Shown here: positions 958-18,291 of the stretch, piece by piece
Layout of the letters: each line of letters begins with the position of its first letter
How positions within the stretch are numbered: the stretch's first letter is position 1
Virus record (IMG/VR): IMGVR_UViG_3300031521_000016
Location: 99,895-140,106 of that record
Length of the DNA stretch: 40,212 nt
From: a virus
Taxonomy: Duplodnaviria; Heunggongvirae; Uroviricota; Caudoviricetes
Strand: one strand, 5' to 3'
Program-made: the position numbers and the translations under genes
Notes under the pieces: generated by a model
What the model was told of the DNA's origin: nothing
Seen by the model: only the letters and a program-made list of their open reading frames with translations
The model's database searches: none

Positions 958-2631
958 TTATTCTACTGCTTCTATTGTAAATGATGAGAAACCTTTACTT
1001 TTCTCGATTTCTATTTTATAGTCAAATTCTGTTGAAGTTAAAGGATAGTGAGAAATTACAAAAGTGTTCAATTCTAAATCTCTAACAGTTTCTCTTAGAA
1101 TCTTCAAAATATGATATATCCCATCTCCGTCGATTGATGAAAATATCTCATCTAAGAAAATTATGTTCATTCCCGGGTATTTCAACTTCATTAATTTCAC
1201 TATTGAAAGTAAAACTGCAAAGTCAACCTTTTTTGATTCACCGGTACTTAATGTGTCAGGACTAACTTCTATACCAAAATGTGATATATGTGAGTTAAAT
1301 TCTTCATCAAAAAGTATACGATGTTCAATACCAAGCATATTTATTAAACGTTGAATCTCAGTATTTAGAGAGGGTAAGATAGAACGAATTGCCATCTGTT
1401 TTATACCTTTTTCGCCAAGTATTTCATCTACTAATGAAAAGAAATTTACTTTCTTTTCAGACATGAATTTGTTTTTACCAGACTGTTGGATATTCATCTT
1501 TGCCTCTTCAGCGATCTTCTTAAGTGATTGAGTCTGTTCAGATACATCACTGCCATTCTCTAAGATTATTCTAAGCTCATTATTTACACCTTTCAACTGT
1601 GTTTCAGCAGATGAAAGTTGTTTCATTACTGAATTTTTAGCTTGATCTATCTTCTCGTAAATTCCGTCTATTCTGGTTTGATGTTCTCTTAATGCATCTA
1701 TTCGTTTTAGACATCCAGTAAGATTCTCTTCTATAACTTTCTGATTATCTTTGTGGAAATCAGTAGTTAAATCTGAAGCACAAACCGGACATTGAGAATT
1801 TTCATAGAGTTTAATTTGCTGTGTAAGTTCTTTTTTATACTGCAATTCACCTGATAGACTCTTATCTATAGCTCGTTTCGTTTCTTTAGCTTTCCCTATC
1901 TTGGAATTTATTTCACTTTCTTTTGCATGCGATCTATCAATATACTCTTCAAGCTTTATTTTTTGCTCTTTTAATAATTCAACTTTTTCACCTCTTGATT
2001 CCAAGATACGTTTAGCAAGATTATTCAATTCATCTTCAGAACTTTTAAGTGTTTTACCAAATGCTGTAGCAGTTGCTCCTAATTGTTCTATCTCATCTTT
2101 AAGTCGCTTGGTTTGCTGTTTAAGCAAGTCTCGCATTTTATTTAGAATCTGCAAACCGAATATCTTATCAATAATTGCTCGTTTATCAAAGTTTGACATT
2201 TTGACAAATGATTTGAAATCATTGATAGATAATGAAAGAGTATTAGAGAATACGTAAAATGGCATTTCTAATAGTTCTTCTTCTAAAAAGTCTTGAACAG
2301 ATCGTTTTCCAGCTTTATCGATGTGTTTACCGTCTAAGAATAGTCTGAAATATCCTGGCTCTAGTCCTCTTTCAATAGTAACCAAACCTCTTCGAGTCTG
2401 AAGATCAATTTTTATCTCTGTATGCTTATTTAATCGGTTCGGAATATCTTTCATCTTTTTAGTTTCAAGCTTTCCGAATATTCCGAACTTTATAACGTCT
2501 GATAATGTAGATTTTCCATGACCGTTCTTACCTACTACTAAAGAAAATCCTGCTTTATCTGGCATTTCTATAACTTGTAGCTTGTTGCCATAACTACCAA
2601 AATTTCTAAATTCACAACGTAATATTTTCAT
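958..2631 (-). CDS. sbcC: SbcC/Rad50-like recombination endonuclease ATPase subunit (T4 gp46)
   Basis: Walker A GKNGHGKST, coiled coil with CPVC zinc hook, signature LSTGE, Walker B IFLDE. Confidence 0.95.
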   Translation of the reverse strand: MKILRCEFRNFGSYGNKLQVIEMPDKAGFSLVVGKNGHGKSTLSDVIKFGIFGKLETKKMKDIPNRLNKHTEIKIDLQTRRGLVTIERGLEPGYFRLFLDGKHIDKAGKRSVQDFLEEELLEMPFYVFSNTLSLSINDFKSFVKMSNFDKRAIIDKIFGLQILNKMRDLLKQQTKRLKDEIEQLGATATAFGKTLKSSEDELNNLAKRILESRGEKVELLKEQKIKLEEYIDRSHAKESEINSKIGKAKETKRAIDKSLSGELQYKKELTQQIKLYENSQCPVCASDLTTDFHKDNQKVIEENLTGCLKRIDALREHQTRIDGIYEKIDQAKNSVMKQLSSAETQLKGVNNELRIILENGSDVSEQTQSLKKIAEEAKMNIQQSGKNKFMSEKKVNFFSLVDEILGEKGIKQMAIRSILPSLNTEIQRLINMLGIEHRILFDEEFNSHISHFGIEVSPDTLSTGESKKVDFAVLLSIVKLMKLKYPGMNIIFLDEIFSSIDGDGIYHILKILRETVRDLELNTFVISHYPLTSTEFDYKIEIEKSKGFSSFTIEAVE

Positions 2632-3161
2632 AGTCCAAATTTTTTGCCAACAATAAATCCTCTTTTCTTATGTGTAAATTCTTCCCAGTTCATACCAGAG
2701 TTTTTCCAACTATCAGCTATTTCTCTATCAGCCAATTTGAACGATAGTATGTTATCGGGTAAGAATTGTGTCGCCATTAAGTCGATTCTCATACCCAGAT
2801 AACCATTCTCAAGATCGTTTACATCAGATAAAGATATATGATCTTCATTGTCTTTGATAATCATGGTGATTTCTATTGAATCACCAAAATCGAGGAAATA
2901 CCCATATAGTATGTGATTTCCTTTTCTCTGATAACGATGTTCATCATTTTCATTCATTGAACTTTGTCCTAGAATATTGTAGCCTATGTTATCTTTCGGT
3001 AAAAAACTAGCTATTATAGACATTCCATCATCTAAGTTTATTTCACGTTGCACATCTGGGGTAATGGACGTTTTTATGACATCATTTTTTCTATCTACAC
3101 CTCTTGTTCCAAATTTTTTAATCTGGGCTTCTATGTATAGTAACTGTTCTTGTTTAGTCAT
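2628..3161 (-). CDS. hypothetical protein with C-terminal RGFIVGKKFGL tag
   Basis: 177-aa ORF between gp47 and gp46 with overlapping stop/start; C-terminus shared with ORFs 36052..36552 and 36555..37031. Confidence 0.75.
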   Translation of the reverse strand: MTKQEQLLYIEAQIKKFGTRGVDRKNDVIKTSITPDVQREINLDDGMSIIASFLPKDNIGYNILGQSSMNENDEHRYQRKGNHILYGYFLDFGDSIEITMIIKDNEDHISLSDVNDLENGYLGMRIDLMATQFLPDNILSFKLADREIADSWKNSGMNWEEFTHKKRGFIVGKKFGL

Positions 3162-7849: not shown

Positions 7850-8372
7850 AGAGAATAGTTCGAATTTTAGTTGCTAAAAAAGATTGTCTGTCAAATGCAT
7901 CTATTTCCCATGGTCTATTTTCATAAGCTATAATATGCCCGTCATAAATTGAATCATTCCATAATACTAGCATATCATTTTTTATGATCAGATTTTTATT
8001 TCTGTATTGTGAGACGTGTATAAGTTCATGGGATAGTACATCTATAGATTTTTGTCTGCTATAATCACGAATATAGATATAGTATGAGCCGCTGAATTCT
8101 ACTACGTATGCATCAAATTCTATGCCCGCTTCTGTATTATTAGTAGACATTGGCAAAATTACAACATTCAAGTTTTTTAGATTCAGTGACTTGAGGCCTG
8201 CATAGACGATAGTATCTAAATACTTTTCTTTAGTACCATTTACTATCGTATTTTCTGTATCTATTGTTACTTTATTGAAGTATTTTTCTTTGGCTGTTAT
8301 AGCCAAATATAGCAGGTAAATTGAAAGTATCGATAATAGAACTATCGATATGATTATTAAAGTCTTTTTCAT
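7842..8372 (-). CDS. membrane-anchored zincin-like metallopeptidase
   Basis: N-terminal hydrophobic segment IIISIVLLSILSIYLLYLAI; HELIH (HExxH) followed by RPWEIDA. Confidence 0.7.
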   Translation of the reverse strand: MKKTLIIISIVLLSILSIYLLYLAITAKEKYFNKVTIDTENTIVNGTKEKYLDTIVYAGLKSLNLKNLNVVILPMSTNNTEAGIEFDAYVVEFSGSYYIYIRDYSRQKSIDVLSHELIHVSQYRNKNLIIKNDMLVLWNDSIYDGHIIAYENRPWEIDAFDRQSFLATKIRTILYE

Positions 8373-9682
8373 TATAGCCCTCCTTCGATAATTTGTGAGT
8401 TCAAATCTTCCAATATTCGCATATAATCGTAGTTGATAGTAAATCGTTTCTTAGAACCTTTATATCCTTCATCTCTATTTACAAGATTTTTGAAATAATA
8501 TTCATTATTCATTAACATCATACTATCTTGAATAATACCGAACATTGAGTCGACCGTGTGTATAAGACCAGCAGATTCAGAAATTTGTTCAATTGTAACA
8601 TCTGATGCATCGTATGCACCTCTATTAAACTGAGTAGCTGTCAAAATAGTCCAGTTATTTCTCATTGCCATGGCACGTAAATCTTCAGCAATCTGTTTAA
8701 TCTTCATATAAGTATTTTCCGTATTTGGATTTCTCCAGTTACGCATAATATTTATATAGTCGAGAACTATCAGCTTAAACTTTATGCCTTTTAGTTCTTC
8801 CATTCTTTTTAGCCAATTTTCAACGTCTATAACGGAAGCAGTTGATGTAGGAAACTCTTTTACTTTCAAAGCTCCAGGTGTACCAAACATACTATTTGAT
8901 GACACATTGGCAAGTCTTTTCTTTATTTCTGCACCGTCTTCAGCTATAGTTGCATATTCTTGCATTTTAATTCCTAATAGATTAGCACCCAATCTCTTGA
9001 TTACTTTTCTATCTGCCATCTCAAATGAAATATATGCTGTGTTATATCCATTTCGTACACCTTGTGAAGCTAAATTGGCTAACCAAATTGACTTACCAAT
9101 CTTAGGCTGTCCAGCTAATACGATTAAAGTTTTTGGAGTATAACCACCACCTAGAACTGTATCGATATACTCGTATCCAGATGAGAACGTTTCATTCTTA
9201 AATTGTCTGTGTGATTCAGGATTTGAAAAATCCAAACCTTCATCAAATTTAAAGTCTACATTATTTCTATCTGATATGATAGATTTTGCAGTCTGTACTA
9301 CATCTTTTACGTTTTCAGTATCTACTTTTGCAGTCTTAAGATATTGTACCAAATCTATAACAGATGCATCTAGATTTTTATATTCTATCCATGCTTCTGC
9401 TGATTCTGCAAGCCAAGTCTCTTCATATTGAGACATGTTAATCTCATATATAGCATCAATACGTTCATTTGGCAATCTTTCATCTAATCCCTTTAGTTTT
9501 GCAAGTTCTTTTATCTGAGATGCCGTTGGAGCTTTATGATACCGTTCTCTAAATTCTTTTCGAATATCGAAAACCTCTTTTAATGCTGGTATAGAAAAGA
9601 AGCGTGAAGATACAATTCCTTCTAATTCAGGACGTTGATCTATATAGTGATAAAAAATTTTTTCTAAATGTTGTGATTGCAT
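8372..9682 (-). CDS. dnaB: replicative DNA helicase, DnaB-like (T4 gp41)
   Basis: Walker A GQPKIGKS, SFEM, VLDYINIM, LRAMA...LTATQFNR. Confidence 0.93.
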   Translation of the reverse strand: MQSQHLEKIFYHYIDQRPELEGIVSSRFFSIPALKEVFDIRKEFRERYHKAPTASQIKELAKLKGLDERLPNERIDAIYEINMSQYEETWLAESAEAWIEYKNLDASVIDLVQYLKTAKVDTENVKDVVQTAKSIISDRNNVDFKFDEGLDFSNPESHRQFKNETFSSGYEYIDTVLGGGYTPKTLIVLAGQPKIGKSIWLANLASQGVRNGYNTAYISFEMADRKVIKRLGANLLGIKMQEYATIAEDGAEIKKRLANVSSNSMFGTPGALKVKEFPTSTASVIDVENWLKRMEELKGIKFKLIVLDYINIMRNWRNPNTENTYMKIKQIAEDLRAMAMRNNWTILTATQFNRGAYDASDVTIEQISESAGLIHTVDSMFGIIQDSMMLMNNEYYFKNLVNRDEGYKGSKKRFTINYDYMRILEDLNSQIIEGGL

Positions 9683-9700
9683 ATCTTATTGTTTATAAAC

Positions 9701-9726
9701 CTTTTAGTGATGGGTTGAAAGAGTTC
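9701..9726 (-). promoter_or_regulatory. bipartite promoter-like motif GAACTCTTT-N10-CTAAAAG
   Basis: Same two boxes and spacing upstream of several replication genes. Confidence 0.55.
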
Positions 9727-10009
9727 AAAATATATCGTTAAATGTATGTGAAATTAACGTATAGTATTTTCTTTTTCCGGCTCCAATTCGTTGTTTCAAA
9801 AAACCTTGAACTACAAGTGAGGTTAATAATTTGTCGATTTCATCTTCTTCTAGTTTCTTCTTAAATGCAGGTTTCATTCCTAGATCGGACCATTCTTCTG
9901 TCATTCTGCCTCTTTCATGTAGAAATGAGCATATATCGAAAAGTGCATCTTCTTCAGTAGGATAATACTCTGTAAGATGATGCACATTATATTTGTATTT
10001 TATTTTCAT
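9725..10009 (-). CDS. hypothetical protein, possible winged helix
   Basis: 94 aa; helix EIDKLLTSLVVQGFL then beta-hairpin-like KQRIGAGKRKYYTL. Confidence 0.6.
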   Translation of the reverse strand: MKIKYKYNVHHLTEYYPTEEDALFDICSFLHERGRMTEEWSDLGMKPAFKKKLEEDEIDKLLTSLVVQGFLKQRIGAGKRKYYTLISHTFNDIF

Positions 10010-10011
10010 TG

Positions 10012-10320
10012 TTAAAATGGTAAATTATTGTCGTCAGGTTGTTCTTTTTCCCATTTCCATTCTATCTTAGTAACTGGGAATGGCATAACTTCTCTCCAAA
10101 TTGGTTCATAAAAATAGATTCCTTCTGCGAAACCCCATTCAAACATGAAATATTTTCTATCGGATTCACGTTGTACTATGACTGTTTGCCATTTACTATC
10201 AGGATCAAGTTTGCATGTTTCAATGTATTCATATACATCGCCATCTACTATCCAATGTCCATATGACTTTGCATAATCATCAATGTTATGCTTATCTACA
10301 TGAAATATTTCTCGTTTCAT
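10012..10320 (-). CDS. hypothetical protein
   Basis: 102-aa ORF in operon. Confidence 0.65.
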   Translation of the reverse strand: MKREIFHVDKHNIDDYAKSYGHWIVDGDVYEYIETCKLDPDSKWQTVIVQRESDRKYFMFEWGFAEGIYFYEPIWREVMPFPVTKIEWKWEKEQPDDNNLPF

Positions 10321-10322
10321 GG

Positions 10323-10541
10323 TTACAAGTTATTTACTAGGTCTTCTAGTTGTTGTGGTAATGGTTCTCTACTATTCAATAACTCAAAACAAATTTCAGG
10401 TGATTGAGAAGCTACAATGAATGTGTAATAGTCATTGCTAAAATTGGGTTTTTCAGCAATTGCTCGTAGCAATTCTTCTTTTATCTCTACAGCTTTAGAT
10501 GGAGAGACATTAGGTAATCTAATAATCAGTATAGGTTTCAT
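10323..10541 (-). CDS. hypothetical protein
   Basis: 72-aa ORF in operon. Confidence 0.6.
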   Translation of the reverse strand: MKPILIIRLPNVSPSKAVEIKEELLRAIAEKPNFSNDYYTFIVASQSPEICFELLNSREPLPQQLEDLVNNL

Positions 10542-10798
10542 ATTTGATCATATATTTTTGGGTTTACAATTATCCGGGATTGCCCAGATTCATGATAGAT
10601 GTGAGCAAGTTGATTAAGAACTATGATGTCTGAGTCGTAACCTTCATCATGAATCTTTTCAAAAGCTTCTATTAACTCTTCTTTATCTTGTGCATTAGGA
10701 ACGATTATTTTAAATTGCGTCCACTGTACATTCTGATATTCTTCTTTAGTTAATGGTTTATTGTCTTTTTTTAATTTGTAATCACTATATTTTCTCAT
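10538..10798 (-). CDS. hypothetical protein
   Basis: 86-aa ORF, ATGA overlap with next gene. Confidence 0.6.
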   Translation of the reverse strand: MRKYSDYKLKKDNKPLTKEEYQNVQWTQFKIIVPNAQDKEELIEAFEKIHDEGYDSDIIVLNQLAHIYHESGQSRIIVNPKIYDQI

Positions 10799-10808
10799 AA
10801 TGTAAAAG

Positions 10809-10835
10809 TGGTGCTAACCGTTTTGATTAGCACCA
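10809..10835 (-). terminator. intrinsic terminator after recA/uvsX
   Basis: TGGTGCTAA/TTAGCACCA 9-bp stem; CTTTT follows on minus strand. Confidence 0.7.
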
Positions 10836-10841
10836 TTATTT

Positions 10842-12104
10842 TTATTCTGCTGATTCTTCTTCGTTTTCTGAATCATCTCCTAATCCAAGTTCTTCAGCTA
10901 AGTCATCCTCATCTGATACATATTTAGGCAATTCAAACATTGGTTTAATGATCTCGTCATCTAACTTATGTAGAATCTCATCAGGCCATACCTCTGCTCT
11001 AAAGATACCTGAACCTTTAATCGTTTTACCCAAATGCTTTACTGCAAAAGTATTAGCTTTTGGATCAGCTTCGTAAATGTAGTTTCCGGTCTTTGTACGT
11101 TCGATTTTAGGTTTTCCTCTGTACATTTTAGGAGTTACACCGTCTTCTTCAAAAATAGGAGTTTCGATAATTTCTTCGATAAGTTTACCTCTTCCTATTC
11201 CGCAACATTCCCATGTAGCATAGTTCTCAAGACCTACGTAAGGATTCATACCTTTGTAGAATGAAATATGGAACTTAACTGCAATAGGTTTTGCAAATCT
11301 GTTCTTGAAAGGTTTCGATGTAACAATGATACCAGTTTTTGAAGCAACTTCTGCTCCGGCATCTGCTCCTGAATCATCCTTCAATTGTGCTTTTCCTAGT
11401 TGCAAAATGATAGAAGCATTATAGATTGCTCCACCACCACCAGAAATGATCTGAGATGGGAAATAAGAACCTACTGCATCATAAGTGTGATTTGTCATGA
11501 TAAGTGGAATCTTAAATTCAGCTAGATCTGTGGTTATAACGCGGAACATTGAACGTAGATTTTGTTGTTTAGTCATATCTCGTTTGTCTGAACCTGAAAG
11601 CGCATCATTAGATTCTTTTTCTGTTGCAAGGTTACCTAATGAATCGATAACGAACATGATCTTTGGTAGTTCTAAACCTTTTTTCTTTTGTTCTCTTAAA
11701 GTTGCACATAGATTCATAACGATATGTCTTGTATGCAAAACAGTTTTTAGAGGTTGGTAACGAACTTTAGATGGATCGATACCGAAGTTTTCCATTGTAC
11801 CCATATCGATAGCGGTTTCAGAGTCACCGTATATGACATAATACCCCATTTTAATAGCTTCTCGTACTACATTTAGTGCCAAGAATGTTTTACCAGTTCC
11901 AGAAGGGCCGGTAAACATTATACCTCTATTTCCTGGAGCTCCTTTGAATAATGATCCACCGATTTGCGCATTTAATACATAATTGCCTGTTGGAATCCAC
12001 TCACTAATTTTAGAAAATTCATTCTCGGTCATTACTGATCCGAGGCCATCGACTTTAGACATTGCCTTGTCTAAATCGTCAAATGAAAAAGTTCCTTTTG
12101 CCAT
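10842..12104 (-). CDS. uvsX: RecA-like recombinase (T4 UvsX)
   Basis: IPTGNYVLNA, Walker A GPSGTGKT, IDSLGNL, NHTY, GGG, KNRF; acidic tail. Confidence 0.95.
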   Translation of the reverse strand: MAKGTFSFDDLDKAMSKVDGLGSVMTENEFSKISEWIPTGNYVLNAQIGGSLFKGAPGNRGIMFTGPSGTGKTFLALNVVREAIKMGYYVIYGDSETAIDMGTMENFGIDPSKVRYQPLKTVLHTRHIVMNLCATLREQKKKGLELPKIMFVIDSLGNLATEKESNDALSGSDKRDMTKQQNLRSMFRVITTDLAEFKIPLIMTNHTYDAVGSYFPSQIISGGGGAIYNASIILQLGKAQLKDDSGADAGAEVASKTGIIVTSKPFKNRFAKPIAVKFHISFYKGMNPYVGLENYATWECCGIGRGKLIEEIIETPIFEEDGVTPKMYRGKPKIERTKTGNYIYEADPKANTFAVKHLGKTIKGSGIFRAEVWPDEILHKLDDEIIKPMFELPKYVSDEDDLAEELGLGDDSENEEESAE

Positions 12105-12128
12105 TTAATCTTTATTATTTTAGTATTA

Positions 12129-12155
12129 CTTTTAGAGTAGATAATCAATAAGTTC
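12129..12155 (-). promoter_or_regulatory. bipartite promoter-like motif GAACTTATT-N11-CTAAAAG
   Basis: Upstream of uvsX. Confidence 0.55.
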
Positions 12156-12220
12156 TTTATAACCGAAAAAGTTGCCACCATTGAATATATAAGAAAAGAT
12201 GTTTTAAAACATATGCATCA

Positions 12221-12246
12221 AAACTTTTTATGATGCAGGCTAATAA
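12221..12246 (+). promoter_or_regulatory. bipartite promoter-like motif AAACTTTTT-N10-CTAATAA
   Basis: Upstream of plus-strand lipoprotein; first box in loop of TGCATCA/TGATGCA inverted repeat. Confidence 0.55.
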
Positions 12247-12277
12247 TTATGATTAAACATCAAAAAATAAAACGAAA

Positions 12278-12568
12278 ATGAAAAAATTAACTATTTATGC
12301 AATGTCTTTGATTATCTTATCTGGATGTGCATTTAATCAAAAGAATTCTCCTAAAGAAGTCACTTTAACTAGCAAAAATTACGCTATTAATGACAAAGAC
12401 AAAATCATGCTAATAGATTCTACTTGCTATTCATATGAAAATATGTCAGCAGTTATTTTTCCTGGGAAAAAACGTGGAATTGCAATTGAAACACATGATA
12501 GTGTAGGAAATGCAATGGTTGTTACAGTAATAACAACTGAATCAGAAAAATTACTTGTTATGCGATGA
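12278..12568 (+). CDS. predicted lipoprotein
   Basis: MKK, hydrophobic core and lipobox LSGC; own promoter-like box and terminator. Confidence 0.75.
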   Translation: MKKLTIYAMSLIILSGCAFNQKNSPKEVTLTSKNYAINDKDKIMLIDSTCYSYENMSAVIFPGKKRGIAIETHDSVGNAMVVTVITTESEKLLVMR

Positions 12569-12590
12569 AATCAGTAGAAATACACACTAT

Positions 12591-12631
12591 AAAGGGAGAG
12601 TCAATTATAAAAATTTGACTCTCCCTTTTTT
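12591..12631. terminator. bidirectional intrinsic terminator
   Basis: AAAGGGAGAGTCAA/TTGACTCTCCCTTT perfect inverted repeat between convergent genes, T-run on both strands. Confidence 0.85.
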
Positions 12632-12852
12632 TAGACTTCAACTATATTCGATTGGAAGTTATTTATGACTTTTTGCCTCCATTTTTGTAAGTTATCGATT
12701 TGTTCATCGAATTCTGCAAAAAACTCGGTAGATTCTGAAATTTTTAAGGTCATATCGTTTTGTACAATACAATTAAAACATGACATTTTACTCATTATCG
12801 ATTTATATTCGTTAAATAAGTCTTCTGTATCGTGTACGTCTATTACTTTCAT
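12631..12852 (-). CDS. hypothetical protein
   Basis: 73-aa ORF. Confidence 0.6.
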   Translation of the reverse strand: MKVIDVHDTEDLFNEYKSIMSKMSCFNCIVQNDMTLKISESTEFFAEFDEQIDNLQKWRQKVINNFQSNIVEV

Positions 12853-12856
12853 GTTG

Positions 12857-13270
12857 CTATTTCTTTCTAAATATCAGTTCACTTTCTTCATTATTTACAA
12901 AATCTGCAATATCTTTGAATTTTGTGAAATATTGACCACCATTTGTTTGTACCATTTTTCCTACCTTTGTCAAGCTCTTATGTTGATCTGAATCAAATTC
13001 TAACTCACCATAGTCACCAAAGCAAAAAATTGTCTTTTCTGGGCGCTTATTTGAGTCATCAATAACTTCTGCTATTGAGTACACTCCTTTCATTTCTGGT
13101 GTTATAACATATAAACAAAAATCGCAAGATTCACGTTCTCTTAATTCTTCTTCATAAGCTTCTTCTGTCCATTCTTCTACTACTGGATTAAAGTAGTCTA
13201 TTTTTAGCATGGGAATTAACTCGTCACGCCATGTACTGTCATTGCAGGTACCTCCTAAAAATACTCTCAT
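12857..13270 (-). CDS. nucleoside 2-deoxyribosyltransferase-like protein
   Basis: VFLGGTCNDSTWRD, YFNPVV, YVITP, GVYSIAE. Confidence 0.85.
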   Translation of the reverse strand: MRVFLGGTCNDSTWRDELIPMLKIDYFNPVVEEWTEEAYEEELRERESCDFCLYVITPEMKGVYSIAEVIDDSNKRPEKTIFCFGDYGELEFDSDQHKSLTKVGKMVQTNGGQYFTKFKDIADFVNNEESELIFRKK

Positions 13271-13497
13271 ATTTCTCTATTTATCATTTTTTCAAAATTT
13301 TCTTTATACTGTTCTCTATCTGCTTCTGATTCGAATGTCATAGGAATCAGATCGGGTTCTCGTCCTTCACGTAAACTATCTATCATTTCTTCATTAATAG
13401 TCTTTCTTATTTCTCTAGCTAATACAGTAGATAGTACGTCACCTACATCCATGCCGTAATGTGTAAATTGTTCTTCCATGTCATATCGTATCACCAT
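13267..13497 (-). CDS. miniprotein resembling the T4 gp23 major capsid spine helix
   Basis: HYGMDVGDVLSTVLAREIRKTINEEMIDSL vs recalled T4 gp23 VHGMDADAELSGILATEIMLEINREVVDWI. Confidence 0.7.
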   Translation of the reverse strand: MVIRYDMEEQFTHYGMDVGDVLSTVLAREIRKTINEEMIDSLREGREPDLIPMTFESEADREQYKENFEKMINREI

Positions 13498-13644
13498 TTA
13501 CGTGGTGACAAGGTTTTTTCCATTGTAGCTGTCTAAAATTTCAAGTTTTAGTTTTTTCGCTTCTAATACTTTTCCCTTTGTCTTTAGACGATCATATTCT
13601 TTCCAACGTTCATCGTCGGATATTTTAAGCTTCTTCGTTTTCAT
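13498..13644 (-). CDS. small basic hypothetical protein (48 aa, below ORF-track cutoff)
   Basis: MKTKKLKISDDERWKEYDRLKTKGKVLEAKKLKLEILDSYNGKNLVTT; TAATG overlap upstream and abutting ATG downstream. Confidence 0.6.
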   Translation of the reverse strand: MKTKKLKISDDERWKEYDRLKTKGKVLEAKKLKLEILDSYNGKNLVTT

Positions 13645-13961
13645 TAGAATAGCCGTAAAGGGTCTTTAAAATCTTTAAACTGGTCTGGAGCTACATAGTA
13701 CATGCCTATTTTATAGTCAGCATAAGAAACTGTCTTTAGTTGATAATAGACTTTTATCGTATCGTCATCTGGTATCATCCAGAAATAAAAATAAGGGACG
13801 TTTGTGTCCTCTATTTTATTTCCAAATTTACTGTGAAGGTTTGGAATTATCTGTGATTCAGAAAACTCTACATAAGCTCCTCTACCGCCATGTACTACTC
13901 TGGTAAATTCATGAGCAAATAAATTGCCATTTATTGTGATTAATTCTTGTTTAGTGCTCAT
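13644..13961 (-). CDS. conserved hypothetical protein (HGGRGAYVEF motif)
   Basis: 105 aa, aromatic-rich; coupled to neighbours. Confidence 0.7.
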   Translation of the reverse strand: MSTKQELITINGNLFAHEFTRVVHGGRGAYVEFSESQIIPNLHSKFGNKIEDTNVPYFYFWMIPDDDTIKVYYQLKTVSYADYKIGMYYVAPDQFKDFKDPLRLF

Positions 13962-15226
13962 TGTAAGTTAAATAAGTTACGACCAAACTTTTTATTGAAT
14001 TTTCTTGCCATTTCAGTGGTTAGATACTGTTTTCGAGATTCATCTTCTGTATCTAATGTCTGACTACCAAGATGGGTTACAGATGATGTCGATATCAAAT
14101 AGTGTTTTATACCGGAATTCAATAACTGTTCTCTATAGCTATCGTCAGCACACCAAAATTCAAAATCTTCATCGAAACCACTTATTTTATCCCAAACTTT
14201 TCGTTTTAGACAGATACACCATCCACTGATATGTTTTCCAGTTTCATATCCCATGATTGCTCCATACATATCTCTTTGTAGAAGATTTTTTGGACATTTA
14301 GGTGACATACTATCATATCCATATTTGAGCAATTGAGTAGCCCATGAATCGTTAAATATCAAGTCATTATTACATACACAAACGTATTCACTTTTGCCTT
14401 CTGCAATTCCTATATTAGCAAACTTGTTATAGTTAAACTTGCCTTCTGGGTGAATAGTTTTTACTTTATCGTAAGTAACACCCTTTATAGATTCTACAAC
14501 TATTACATTGAATAATCCTGCTCTATCTGAAGCATATAGACTTTTAATGCAGTCTTCAGTTAATTTCTTAAATGCATCAGTTTTTGCATAAGACAGTATG
14601 ACAATGTCTATAGTACTATTATCATATTCGACTATCTTATTTTGTATGATGTTATCTGTATCAATAGGCTCCATTGTCAATTCTAACTCATCATACGAAA
14701 ATTTGAAAAAATAGAGAGCTTCATAGATATTAAACTCTGTACGAATTTTACTTTTTACGTATGTAATATAGTCGGGGCGATTTACAGCATTCTTTACTAT
14801 GTCACGTTTTATGCACATTAAATGATTAGGTGATCCGTATAATGATACTACCTTATCGTTCACTATTTCTTCTTTGAGCTCTTCATTATCATAGTTCATC
14901 GATAAGAAACATGGTACTATTTCATCTTCATTTATATGCTGATCTATGACAAAGTTTATAACGTCAACATCTTTAGAAGTGGCATCGTACAAAGAAGCAA
15001 TATAGTTATCTGATACATCATCATTATCGTCAATAAATGCTACATATTTCCCAGTAGACATTTCTACTAATTGTCTACGCTTCTTACTTATTTCAACACG
15101 CTGATTGTCTAAGAGACAGATTATTTCAACGTCTTTATATTGTTCAGCCTGATCAGAGATTTTCTGTATAAGAGTAAGTGTATTTGCTTTTGACGTTATA
15201 CTACATACTAATATTGATAGTTTCAT
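13958..15226 (-). CDS. two-domain family 2 glycosyltransferase (GT2-GT2); start probably 15226
   Basis: Domain 1 KLSILVCS...GKYVAFIDDND; domain 2 IDIVILSY...FNYNKFANIG...YVCVCNND...ISGWC...FEFWCADD; ATGA overlap at 15223-15226 favours this start over 15298. Confidence 0.88.
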   Translation of the reverse strand: MKLSILVCSITSKANTLTLIQKISDQAEQYKDVEIICLLDNQRVEISKKRRQLVEMSTGKYVAFIDDNDDVSDNYIASLYDATSKDVDVINFVIDQHINEDEIVPCFLSMNYDNEELKEEIVNDKVVSLYGSPNHLMCIKRDIVKNAVNRPDYITYVKSKIRTEFNIYEALYFFKFSYDELELTMEPIDTDNIIQNKIVEYDNSTIDIVILSYAKTDAFKKLTEDCIKSLYASDRAGLFNVIVVESIKGVTYDKVKTIHPEGKFNYNKFANIGIAEGKSEYVCVCNNDLIFNDSWATQLLKYGYDSMSPKCPKNLLQRDMYGAIMGYETGKHISGWCICLKRKVWDKISGFDEDFEFWCADDSYREQLLNSGIKHYLISTSSVTHLGSQTLDTEDESRKQYLTTEMARKFNKKFGRNLFNLQ

Positions 15227-16095
15227 TTCTTCTTTTTCAATTTCTCTTTTAAAATATCGCTTAAATATACTAAAAGATTGTATTTTCTTTCGTCCCATTT
15301 TATCATTCTGTATATAAGAGGTTGTTCTTCAAATGAAGAAACTGCAATATTTTTATTGAGTACATAACGTCTTCTCATATGAACATCAACCACAGTCTCT
15401 ATATCTTCAGCTTTATCTTTATCTTCTATTACTGCTATTACGCCATTGTACACAGAATTCTCAGAATATTTTACACCCATGATTATTGGTGCGTCCATCT
15501 TTGCATATAAATCTACAATAACGGATATACCATGTATATTTCCTATTACTTCAGTTCCACTGAACTCGGTAGAATGTGTTGTGTTATAGTTAAAATTAGT
15601 ATGACCTTCTATTATACATGCAGATTTTTTTGATACGATAACGAAATCGGCCAATTGTTGAGTATCTCTTAGTATTTTTTGTCTACACTTATGTATCTCT
15701 TTTACTATATCGTAAGACGTTACTATCTGAGTACGTGGTTCATACTTAAACCACTTGAATAATTTAGCTTGTGTCGGTGTAAAATTTCTTCTATATGAAT
15801 CTTCTGATAATCTATACAATTCTTGACCAATACGTTTTTCAAAATATGAATCCATTTCGGTTAGAATTACATGACTCACTTTTTGCTCCGGTATGATACC
15901 CATTCTAGTAAGATTGTTATAGTCAGTTTCGTGTATGACAGTATCAACTTTATATGGCTGCAGTTTAATGAGCTTAGATTTAATTTCTAACATTAACTGT
16001 GCATATTTGTAATTATACGCCCTATATATTGCTTCGTATCTGTTTAGATTACGAGGGTTTTTTTTTACACAAACAAAATCTGATAGTTTTTTCAT
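15223..16095 (-). CDS. divergent gp23/gp24-like (HK97-fold) capsid protein homolog, shortened
   Basis: EIHKCRQKILRDTQQLADFVIVS and VIGNIHGISVIVDLYAKMDAPIIMGVK match recalled gp23 QIDKEAVEIARQTGRGEGNFIIAS and FAGVLGGKYRVYIDQYAKQDYFTVGYK. Confidence 0.65.
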   Translation of the reverse strand: MKKLSDFVCVKKNPRNLNRYEAIYRAYNYKYAQLMLEIKSKLIKLQPYKVDTVIHETDYNNLTRMGIIPEQKVSHVILTEMDSYFEKRIGQELYRLSEDSYRRNFTPTQAKLFKWFKYEPRTQIVTSYDIVKEIHKCRQKILRDTQQLADFVIVSKKSACIIEGHTNFNYNTTHSTEFSGTEVIGNIHGISVIVDLYAKMDAPIIMGVKYSENSVYNGVIAVIEDKDKAEDIETVVDVHMRRRYVLNKNIAVSSFEEQPLIYRMIKWDERKYNLLVYLSDILKEKLKKKK

Positions 16096-16343
16096 TAGTT
16101 CATTCTTATTTTTTTCTTATTAACTAACGTATCTCTGAATAATACAGCAGAACTTATAACGTCTTCAAATTCCATAGTTTGCCACACTACTAATGATTGC
16201 ATAAATTCTACATCATTTGCCTCATCTCTGAGTACTGGATCGCCATCTTCTGCATCTATCAAAGATATTCCGTGTTTGTGTAATTCTAAAACTATTCTTG
16301 CATACTTATCGAATGCATCCTCAAATCTTATTTTTTCACTCAT
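16095..16343 (-). CDS. hypothetical protein
   Basis: 82-aa ORF. Confidence 0.6.
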   Translation of the reverse strand: MSEKIRFEDAFDKYARIVLELHKHGISLIDAEDGDPVLRDEANDVEFMQSLVVWQTMEFEDVISSAVLFRDTLVNKKKIRMN

Positions 16344-16590
16344 CCTTTAATTGTAATTTAGTATTCGCAATAGATTCTTCATTTATTACGATTTCATCTT
16401 CATACATGAAACCTTCACAGTCATGCTTATATGCATGCATAACTTCTGCATTTTTCTTGCACTGATCTATTGCTAGTTCACATGCTTCACGCATTGCAGC
16501 AATAGCATCTTCGACTTCAATATTATTGTTCCAAATCGATCCATTAGCTTTTAAGATTTCTCTTAAGTTTATTTCAATCTTTGTATTCAT
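16336..16590 (-). CDS. hypothetical protein
   Basis: 84-aa ORF. Confidence 0.6.
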   Translation of the reverse strand: MNTKIEINLREILKANGSIWNNNIEVEDAIAAMREACELAIDQCKKNAEVMHAYKHDCEGFMYEDEIVINEESIANTKLQLKDE

Positions 16591-16945
16591 TTTCTGTAAA
16601 ATTCTTTAATGATTCATCATTCATTGTCTCAATAGGATATTTCATAATATATGCATCCATTATGATCTGTCTTCTGCTTGCTGCCGCCATAGATTCATAA
16701 TTGTCTACACGATAAGATTGTAACCAAGCATCTTGGGTTTCTCTAACTTCTCTTACTATGTCGTAAAATTTTTCAAGTTCTTCATCATTATCGAATTCTA
16801 ATGTAAATGAACCATCATCGATTATATTAATCTTCTTTACGATGCCATCCTTTGAATGTTCTTTTATAAACTTTTCATACTCTAAACGAGTAGTTTTTGC
16901 TATTTCGTTTAGAGCTGCAGTCTTTTCAGATATATACGCTTTCAT
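16574..16945 (-). CDS. hypothetical protein
   Basis: 123-aa ORF coupled to polymerase gene. Confidence 0.65.
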   Translation of the reverse strand: MKAYISEKTAALNEIAKTTRLEYEKFIKEHSKDGIVKKINIIDDGSFTLEFDNDEELEKFYDIVREVRETQDAWLQSYRVDNYESMAAASRRQIIMDAYIMKYPIETMNDESLKNFTENEYKD

Positions 16946-18126
16946 TAGAATAATTGTGTTGATGTTACAAGTTTTGCACTAATAGCTGAGAAGCCCATAG
17001 CTTCGACGAATCTATTTAATGGAGATATGATAGACTTGTTAAATTGAATATCGTGGTCGATAGGAGGTGCAATTTCTATTGGGAACTGCCCAGGTTGAAA
17101 AGCAAATACATTTTCTTCGTCACGTTTACCTTTTGCCACATAGTACTTAACTTTATCACCAGTTCTAATCAAAGGATATTTCCTTTTATACTTCGAGTTT
17201 GATACTGTAAAGTTATAGATAGCTGCAGCTCTAACGTGAATTGGACATCCTTTTTCTAGTACAAGTTTTTCTTTGTCTTGTAGTACAAACTTTTCATAAT
17301 CTCCAATTGAAGATGCCATAGAAATCTCTTCGATATCTTTAAGCTTATATTCTTCTTTATGTTTACGCAGAATACTTGTAAATTCACTGATAGAAAAATC
17401 ACGTTTCTTGTCTAAGATATATCTTAACATAGACATTAATGTAGTTCTAACGTAAATAGATGAAGAAGATTGAACAATTTCTACACCTTTTGCTGTTATA
17501 TGACTTAAACTGTCAATATCGATACCTGGGTCTTTCCATATTGGATCATATACATACTTCTTTTTTCCTAACCAAATACCTGATGCTGATATTGCTTCAA
17601 GTTCAAAGTTTTGAATATTTGTAGTTCCTGATTTCTTGGCATATAGTTCAAAACACATGTTTAGATATTCCTTTAAGAATATGTCATATATTCTTTTTAT
17701 GAAATCGGTTGGAGAACCTGGCCAGTTGCATTTTGATATGATCTCTTCGAATACAACATAATTTGAATCCGTATCGATATAGAGAACTGGAGCTAAATCT
17801 ATTTTTTGTACTTCAGTTATGCCGAGTTTTTCATGCAATTTAGTATCAAGATGCCAAAACTCCATAAAGTATCTGTTGATTACCTTTTCGGAATATTTGA
17901 TTAAATCTTGGCCTTGTAAAGTAACAGCTTCTGCTACTGCAGTATTATAGAAGATAAACCATGGTGAACCAGTGGCTCCATAAACTGAATTAATGAAAAT
18001 CTTTAAAGCCTGTTCACGGTTCATGTAGAAATTGGCTAAATCTTCCATTCTCTCTATTTCCGCTTCGAGTTCTTGTTTTGTTACGTTATTTGGGTCTATC
18101 TGACACCATTTTAAGTTTTCTATCAT
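16945..18126 (-). CDS. polB: family B DNA polymerase, C-terminal subunit (fingers P helix, palm, thumb; gp43B-like)
   Basis: Motif B KIFINSVYG, motif C YIDTDS, KKKY, KGVE; no exonuclease or motif A. Confidence 0.93.
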   Translation of the reverse strand: MIENLKWCQIDPNNVTKQELEAEIERMEDLANFYMNREQALKIFINSVYGATGSPWFIFYNTAVAEAVTLQGQDLIKYSEKVINRYFMEFWHLDTKLHEKLGITEVQKIDLAPVLYIDTDSNYVVFEEIISKCNWPGSPTDFIKRIYDIFLKEYLNMCFELYAKKSGTTNIQNFELEAISASGIWLGKKKYVYDPIWKDPGIDIDSLSHITAKGVEIVQSSSSIYVRTTLMSMLRYILDKKRDFSISEFTSILRKHKEEYKLKDIEEISMASSIGDYEKFVLQDKEKLVLEKGCPIHVRAAAIYNFTVSNSKYKRKYPLIRTGDKVKYYVAKGKRDEENVFAFQPGQFPIEIAPPIDHDIQFNKSIISPLNRFVEAMGFSAISAKLVTSTQLF

Positions 18127-18180: not shown

Positions 18181-18291
18181 GTGCTATAACTAGACTCGAA
18201 CTAGTAGTTTTGGAGTTTCCAAATTGGTATATTCCTAGAAATTATATGTTGACTATAAATCCCGTTATTCAACTTTCACCACATATAGCAC
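18181..18291 (-). tRNA. atypical tRNA-like element, 8-bp acceptor stem, long variable arm, predicted CUA anticodon
   Basis: GTGCTATA/TATAGCAC acceptor; ACTAG-TTCGAGT-CTAGT T-arm; TTTGGA-AAC-TCCAAA variable arm; TATAAT-TTCTAGG-AATATA anticodon arm with one mismatch; oversized D region; followed by CGA, not CCA. Confidence 0.65.

Follow-up and report, generated by a model that had tools for sequence, protein, structure and literature searches.

The window analysed here, a stretch of 40,212 nucleotides, is the final 40 kb of a 140,106-bp viral contig from IMG/VR with a GC content of 33% and a CheckV completeness estimate of 57%, nearly all of whose genes are carried on the minus strand. On this strand, at positions 13267–13497, we located an intact ORF for a protein of 76 residues, which ends in a TGA stop codon and could alternatively start at Met7 (13479). 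An earlier sequence-only reading of this DNA had pointed to this ORF, and the peptide that it quoted is indeed present in the product. It had also claimed that the gene is coupled to its neighbours, which is borne out by both of its junctions: the TAA of the upstream ORF directly abuts its ATG, and its own TGA overlaps the ATG of the downstream gene in the form of ATGA. The downstream gene (12857–13270, minus strand) encodes a nucleoside 2-deoxyribosyltransferase-like protein of 137 aa (Pfam PF15891, E=2.1e-10), and upstream are found ORFs of 48 aa (13498–13644, minus strand) and 105 aa (13644–13961, minus strand). These genes make up a conserved four-gene block, the order of which (105 aa, 48/54 aa, mini-gene, deoxyribosyltransferase-like gene) is retained in the nearest relative, L003, where both immediate neighbours of the mini-gene are syntenic. 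A short inverted repeat (13491–13508) allows a 6-bp pairing in the mRNA across the UAA-AUG junction that covers a part of the start codon, and, judging from this arrangement, it may enforce translational coupling of the mini-gene to the upstream ORF.

Relative to contig L004, which is 99.7% identical, a 1-nt indel in a run of A at about position 13525 alters the tail of the upstream ORF, with lengths of 48 versus 54 aa and different last residues. In the window this ORF is in the same frame as the mini-gene, with a single TAA between the two. A fusion of the two through read-through was considered and ruled out, because the frames at this place differ in the relatives. Over the 1227 nt that could be aligned with L004, all four substitutions are confined to 22 nt (13360–13381, codons 39–46), three of them being synonymous A-to-T changes and the fourth resulting in L42V; this cluster looks like a short conversion patch or a local hot spot. 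The only sizeable ORF on the plus strand nearby (12278–12568, 96 aa) lies between the mini-gene block and uvsX, and its product has a lipoprotein-type signal with an LPAM_1 match (E=0.0067) that is under the cut-off.

The local gene order begins with the C-terminal half of polB, followed by three small ORFs, a 290-aa ORF resembling major capsid proteins (MCPs), and a double GT2 glycosyltransferase; it then proceeds through the ORFs of 105, 48, 76, 137 and 73 aa to uvsX, four small ORFs and a gp41-type helicase. Across 8372–18126 this mirrors the T4 order gp43-imm-42-beta-gt-SegA-uvsX-40-41, which supports the earlier placement of the gene in a replication operon and not in the head module. The mini-gene thus lies between the glycosyltransferase and uvsX, and not beside a scaffold and prohead protease; by synteny, its slot is that occupied in T4 by the homing endonuclease SegA. 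The counterpart cluster of T4 is expressed early to middle. The synteny with this cluster would be compatible with early or middle expression, as would the finding that the minus strand has no late-promoter-like word from 12 to 24 kb. The head-vertex assembly chaperone gp40 of T4 is encoded inside the same uvsX/gp41 cluster, and head functions therefore have a precedent in a replication cluster, although gp40, unlike the mini-protein, is not derived from a capsid protein. The DNA polymerase is split, with its C-terminal half at 16945–18126, and its nearest relatives are those of the Lak megaphage Lak-A2 (40% identity) and of uncultured phages of 460–640 kb. In this non-structural region a third, likewise faint trace of a head gene is found 13 kb from the mini-gene: a 225-aa ORF at positions 1–320 of the window (extending to G000:C1:99537-100214, minus strand), whose match to the prohead serine protease family Peptidase_S77 is weak (E=0.024, 14.6 bits against a cut-off of 27). 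A tRNA-like amber suppressor that had been suggested at 18181–18291 was not recovered: ARAGORN and Rfam (at gathering thresholds) detected no tRNA or RNA family anywhere in the window.

Profile searches connected the mini-protein with the gp23-type MCPs of tailed phages. Its residues 6–53 align with positions 161–208 of the Pfam Gp23 profile (PF07068) with E=3.9e-4 and 20.4 bits, which is under the gathering score of 24.4 bits and leaves the protein outside formal membership of that family; the 'major head protein' profile phrog_138 was matched with E=1.5e-3. All six members of the stand-alone family described below matched Pfam Gp23 (best E-value 2.3e-5), and five of them matched phrog_138. 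A further profile, phrog_37782 (E=0.0018 with the mini-protein), was matched by just one of the six and was not found in five phage genomes. With BLASTP, residues 5–76 align with residues 257–326 of the MCP of Listeria phage LIS04, the gene for which is uninterrupted, at 29% identity over 73 aa, and the E-value of 4e-7 refers to this single pairwise comparison. For this analysis we also built an alignment and HMM of 15 diverse gp23-family MCPs, comprising those of T4, a cyanophage, KVP40-like, Campylobacter, Acinetobacter and Aeromonas phages, a 360-kb Klebsiella phage, LIS04 and the G001 clade (see below). When the alignment of the small family was compared with it using hhalign, a probability of 88% and P=2.8e-6 were obtained over 58 columns, equivalent to about residues 281–356 of T4 gp23, and the MCP HMM scored all six small proteins above 1800 shuffled sequences and 239 other ORFs of the contig. 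In a tblastn search over 50,697 phage records the best matches were MCP genes at the same site, namely those of Bacillus phage SP-15, LIS04 and Aeromonas phage Ahp1; a megablast search of the region against the same records yielded no match. The kinship with gp23 that the sequence-only reading had proposed is thus significant by both profile and BLAST comparison, and neither of the observations that it had named as fatal to it, namely a missing gp23 profile match or an ORF lost in relatives, was made.

The alignment of the mini-protein with the spine-helix segment of the Gp23 family is collinear, and T4 gp23 and the mini-protein have in common the motif 'L..(I/V)LA.EI...IN.E'. The T4 gp23 string from which the similarity was originally recognized is correct, for it agrees with residues 282–310 in the T4 record; the gap-free alignment with it holds in that 13 of 30 positions are identical, but the 'GMD' motif that had been included in it is not conserved across the family. 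Codons 18–44 (13366–13446, minus strand) form a long helix, the homologue of the spine helix of MCPs (about residues 286–312 of T4 gp23), as indicated by the alignments and by an AlphaFold2 (AF2) model with pLDDT >90 in this segment. Codons 45–72 (13282–13365, minus strand) comprise a loop, whose PMTF motif matches PLTF in the LIS04 MCP, and a second helix that matches the start of the first helix of the MCP A domain. The description of the gene as a copy of the spine helix is therefore right as regards the homology of that helix, but the copied piece is longer and runs through the loop and strand with PMTF into the next helix. Unlike T4 gp23, which has the HK97 fold, the mini-protein is without the N-arm, E-loop, insertion domain, P-domain sheet and most of the A domain, and it cannot therefore form a capsid subunit; its 76 residues were modelled by AF2 as a helix-loop-helix only. 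It further differs from gp23 in being encoded in a replication cluster and in having family-specific invariant residues. Structure searches were uninformative for a 76-aa helix-loop-helix: Foldseek retrieved nothing from the PDB at E<=0.001, and the best matches in a wide search with VIA-align were generic helical hairpins (Z up to 4.3). Six-frame translations around the mini-gene contained no flanking MCP remnants, and no full MCP gene was found on the 140-kb contig.

An exhaustive phmmer search of 1.84 billion representative proteins recovered, at E<=1e-3, only four other clusters, all of 65–98 aa, and neither a long nor a fused version; a word-based search added one 68%-identical and one 99%-identical copy. 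The family accordingly consists of six lineages of stand-alone proteins of 65–98 aa, all of metagenomic origin and diverged down to 36% identity; one lineage occurs on 15 contigs, and each of the remaining ones on two at most. In their alignment T24, L26, A27, R28 and I30 of the spine-like helix, P52 and F55 of the loop, and R74 are invariant. Of these, T24, R28 and R74 lack conservation among MCPs, and several polar residues of the MCP consensus, namely E29, N35 and E36/E37 of 'EI..IN.E', are kept in the family together with the PxTF strand. Most members are strongly acidic, with a pI of about 4.5 and a net charge of −8 to −9, an exception being P0003 with a pI of 9. AF2 modelling on the six-sequence alignment gave helices at 18–44 and 58–72 joined by a loop, with a mean pLDDT of 84; the N-terminal 12 residues vary between the members, and the model has low confidence there. 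Intact copies of the ORF are present at seven of seven loci, and its ends are conserved throughout the six diverged lineages, in keeping with the conservation that had been anticipated. The dN/dS comparison that had been proposed as a check also came out in favor of the gene: between the window and L003 pN is 0.196 and pS 0.745, the latter being saturated, with omega <0.1, and between the window and the near-identical L004 omega is about 0.08. The family is under strong purifying selection. At four distant loci the mini-gene alone is held in common and its neighbours differ. The mini-protein is, with high probability, an acidic helix-loop-helix of about 70 aa descended from gp23-type MCPs, which belongs to a rare stand-alone family of huge T4-related phages that is under purifying selection and moves between neighbourhoods independently of the resident MCP.

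A profile search of Lak-A2 and four other phages of 460–640 kb, the nearest by DNA polymerase, found no stand-alone homologue. The best match there (E=0.015 for the genome) was a 514-aa prohead-protease fusion protein of Lak-A2 (L028, 1474–3018, minus strand), which has an N-terminal Peptidase_S77 domain (E=1.3e-9) and C-terminal helical residues 451–491 that match the family with a hhalign P of 0.005; this match is probably driven by composition.

The 290-aa ORF in the same operon (15223–16095, minus strand) encodes a truncated MCP paralogue (phrog_138, E=2.7e-5). Using hhalign, its residues 27–269 aligned with residues 237–521 of T4 gp23 (P=1.2e-5), so that it includes a spine helix of its own, and it is without the N-arm, E-loop and insertion domain. 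It has no pairwise similarity to the 76-aa protein. The notion that the two ORFs are halves of one broken MCP gene was ruled out, given this separate spine helix and an order that is not collinear. A lone homologue, 98% identical, was found among 5.8 billion proteins, and none by tblastn in the 50,697 phage records; the AF2 model has a pLDDT of 33 and is unusable. Along with the T4 vertex protein gp24, a paralogue of gp23, it provides a precedent for capsid genes that took on a role of their own after duplication and divergence; gp24, however, is a full-length structural protein, whereas the 76-aa protein is a fragment.

The relationship to a resident capsid gene could be followed on the 93-kb contig G001, which carries both the member P0003 and a 601-aa MCP of the Gp23 family and is the only genome with both, the MCP of the phage in the window being off the contig. 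BLASTP produced no alignment between P0003 and this MCP, and their pairwise z-score is 0.5. The family profile does fall on the right spot of the G001 MCP, its spine helix at 391–425, but weakly (P=0.008). Pairwise z-scores of the family are highest against a Thornevirus MCP (10.4, 8.2 and 6.5) and reach 7.6 against T4-type MCPs, as compared with 0.5–2.8 against the G001 MCP itself and up to 4.3 against members of its clade. The lack of resemblance in G001 implies that the mini-gene is neither a fresh copy nor a close mimic of the resident MCP, and any action on the resident capsid would therefore have to proceed through shape or a few residues. On these comparisons the mini-gene does not co-evolve with the resident capsid gene, and it is either old or horizontally mobile. 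In G001 (L007, 4430–6739) the member is situated among nucleotide-metabolism-type genes, which, to judge from their translations, appear to encode a radical-SAM-like protein with a CxxxCxxC motif, a P-loop protein resembling kinases and a protein resembling HAD-type nucleotidases.

A clue to the origin of the gene comes from Bacillus phage SP-15 (L005), whose MCP gene is split (1860–3006) by an intron of about 1.15 kb with an endonuclease I-like ORF (SP15_032/033/034). The break corresponds to a point between residues 256 and 257 of the LIS04 MCP, directly before the spine-helix segment, and the alignment of the mini-protein with LIS04 starts at 257; the boundary of the homology thus coincides with a known intron insertion site. 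Exon 2 of SP-15 begins where the mini-protein homology begins, and the family is most similar to a Thornevirus-type MCP such as this; exon 2, however, continues up to the C-terminus of the MCP, and splicing makes it part of a full-length protein, whereas the mini-gene corresponds to its first 70 or so residues alone. The presence of two C-terminal-type MCP derivatives in a slot known to house mobile endonucleases suggests that these elements relocated exon-like fragments. It is conceivable, though we would stop short of calling it probable, that a piece of the 3'-exon type, originating from a capsid gene with an interruption, was inserted into the plastic slot between beta-gt and uvsX. No intron or homing endonuclease was detected beside the mini-gene, there being no Rfam family in the window and no endonuclease domain in the neighbours, and the N-terminal residues that bear the boundary are variable; we therefore treat this origin as a lead.

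MicroProteins and the capsid-redirecting proteins of satellites, such as SaPI CpmB, P4 Sid and PICI Ccm, offer a putative working analogy, that of a small protein acting in trans on the machinery of capsid assembly. The mini-protein is not homologous to CpmB or Sid and is encoded by the phage itself and not by a satellite. As the best explanation on the whole we tentatively put forward that a capsid-derived gene acts in a microProtein-like manner on the capsid pathway, and we regard this as a serious possibility that falls short of being probable. The particular mode of action typical of microProteins, in which the protein would serve as a soluble copy of one parental interaction surface, is a more doubtful element of it. 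In the expanded T4 head, the insertion domain of gp23 rests on the spine-helix/A-domain junction of its neighbour, and the substitutions G292S/V306I/V307I, which in combination bypass gp31, all fall within the spine helix of gp23 (PMC9546572). It is this helix that determines whether gp23 depends on the co-chaperonin gp31. G292, V306 and V307 correspond to the invariant T24, to M/I38 and to I/L/V39 of the family, and hence the mini-protein has the hydroxyl and the bulky hydrophobics of the self-folding state; going by the alignment, such residues would be expected in a fragment that has to fold alone. A free copy of the junction, made alongside the replication genes, would occupy whatever normally grips the spine-helix/A-domain junction, with the MCP insertion domain, a scaffold or protease component, the 290-aa paralogue and the capsid protein of a T4-like competitor as candidate targets, and the formation of capsomers could thereby be delayed, steered or poisoned. 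Against action on the capsid pathway speak the missing pairwise similarity between P0003 and the MCP in G001, where the profile reaches just P=0.008, and the invariant T24, R28 and R74, whose absence from the MCP consensus fits a new function equally well as a retained one. The explanation as a whole is further weakened by the lack of an endonuclease or intron beside the gene, by intron-boundary residues that are variable and modelled with low confidence, and by the rarity of the family, which has no stand-alone copy in the five huge phages nearest by DNA polymerase.

Charged helices are prone to yielding spurious matches, as exemplified by the protease-scaffold protein of Lak-A2, and the similarity of an amphipathic charged helix to the spine helix of gp23 could have arisen by chance, without shared ancestry. 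The match is indeed short and under the Pfam gathering score, and against the PDB chains of T4 gp23 and gp24 the profile obtains E-values of only 0.4–0.9, with an ATP-synthase chain scoring better. However, all six members match Pfam Gp23 at the same profile positions, score above every one of the 1800 shuffles and give the profile-profile P-value stated above; the collinearity continues past the helix through PxTF into the next helix; and the best tblastn matches among the phage records fall in MCP genes at this very site. A relic or passenger devoid of function, left over from a broken capsid-gene copy or from exon DNA carried by a mobile element, would suit the plastic slot (with its homing endonuclease in T4), the boundary at the SP-15 intron site and the rarity of the family, but it is contradicted by the strong purifying selection, by ORFs that are intact in six lineages down to 36% identity, by the survival of the mini-gene through the turnover of its neighbours, by the confident and compact AF2 model and by the lack of flanking capsid remnants in any frame. 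The match statistics and the selection data effectively exclude both, and we consider a dead relic highly improbable and chance even more so. A more substantial competitor is exaptation, whereby the protein would be capsid-derived by history only and serve the early program as a regulator or adaptor in the form of a small, acidic helical hairpin, with a nucleotide-metabolism, replication or host protein, for example, in place of a capsid partner. Both informative contexts, the window (with the deoxyribosyltransferase-like gene, the glycosyltransferase, uvsX and polB) and G001, consist of nucleotide-metabolism and replication genes, the surface residues R28 and R74 are invariant without being conserved in MCPs, there is no likeness to the resident MCP in G001, and most members are acidic. 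Yet polar residues of the MCP consensus and PxTF have been retained despite saturated synonymous divergence, a second MCP derivative lies within the same operon, and the charge is not conserved, P0003 having a pI of 9; the fact that neighbours are not conserved across lineages also suggests that there is no fixed enzyme partner. Exaptation to an unrelated task thus appears somewhat unlikely, and we favor microProtein-like action on the capsid pathway over it by a small margin, on account of the 290-aa paralogue in the operon, the prohead-protease echo (E=0.024), and the retained polar residues and PxTF.

The sequence-only reading had thought of an expressed capsid decoy or a dominant-negative assembly regulator, and much of what underlies it holds, namely the gp23-type descent, the intact and selected gene and the T4-like replication cluster; what is weakened, by G001 and by the family-specific invariants, is simple mimicry of the phage's own capsid. 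Either role, decoy or assembly regulator, would be conceivable. As a decoy, the protein would be made early, bind a host sensor of the capsid segment without triggering it and hide the later flood of capsid protein. This would accord with the location of the gene in a cluster that by synteny is early to middle, such timing being established for T4, with the absence of a putative late-promoter word on the minus strand from 12 to 24 kb, and with the copied segment being the most conserved part of gp23-type proteins in the 15-MCP alignment, which makes it a good target for a sensor. The premise that defences sense capsids is correct in that CapRel, Thoeris, CBASS and other systems are often set off by capsid and vertex proteins (review PMC13728456), but the Gol trigger of Lit, the one capsid sensor of T4 whose trigger has been mapped and which the reading had also cited, lies in the first quarter of gp23, outside the copied segment (PMC3014915), and no sensor is known for the segment itself. 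A decoy should moreover track the resident capsid, which in G001 it does not, as P0003 shows no BLASTP resemblance to its own capsid protein (z=0.5), and the mini-protein matched no anti-defence family. Our literature search found no described capsid-fragment decoy or mimic and no stand-alone gp23 fragment gene, and the decoy would therefore be without precedent. We regard it as improbable. Scarcely more probable is a combination of the two ideas, an early 'capsid microProtein' whose free junction copy would blind a gp23-capsid sensor or poison the capsomers of competing T4-like phages or satellites. The resident MCP would then have diverged at the copied segment and hence be immune, which fits the observation in G001 that the small protein resembles consensus T4/Thornevirus MCPs and not its own.

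By sequence criteria the mini-gene family is real and rare, and its likeness to capsid proteins goes beyond chance. Even before its function is considered, it illustrates cleanly how a fragment of a structural gene has been domesticated as a gene in its own right. Its origin may even be traceable, because an intron site in a related capsid gene matches the boundary of the mini-gene, and the family is small enough for direct testing. Few triggers of bacterial immunity are as common as capsid proteins, whose assembly is under tight control; if the proposed action is true, the mini-protein would represent a new kind of trans-acting tool, by which a phage could control or sabotage capsid assembly or hide the capsid from sensors.
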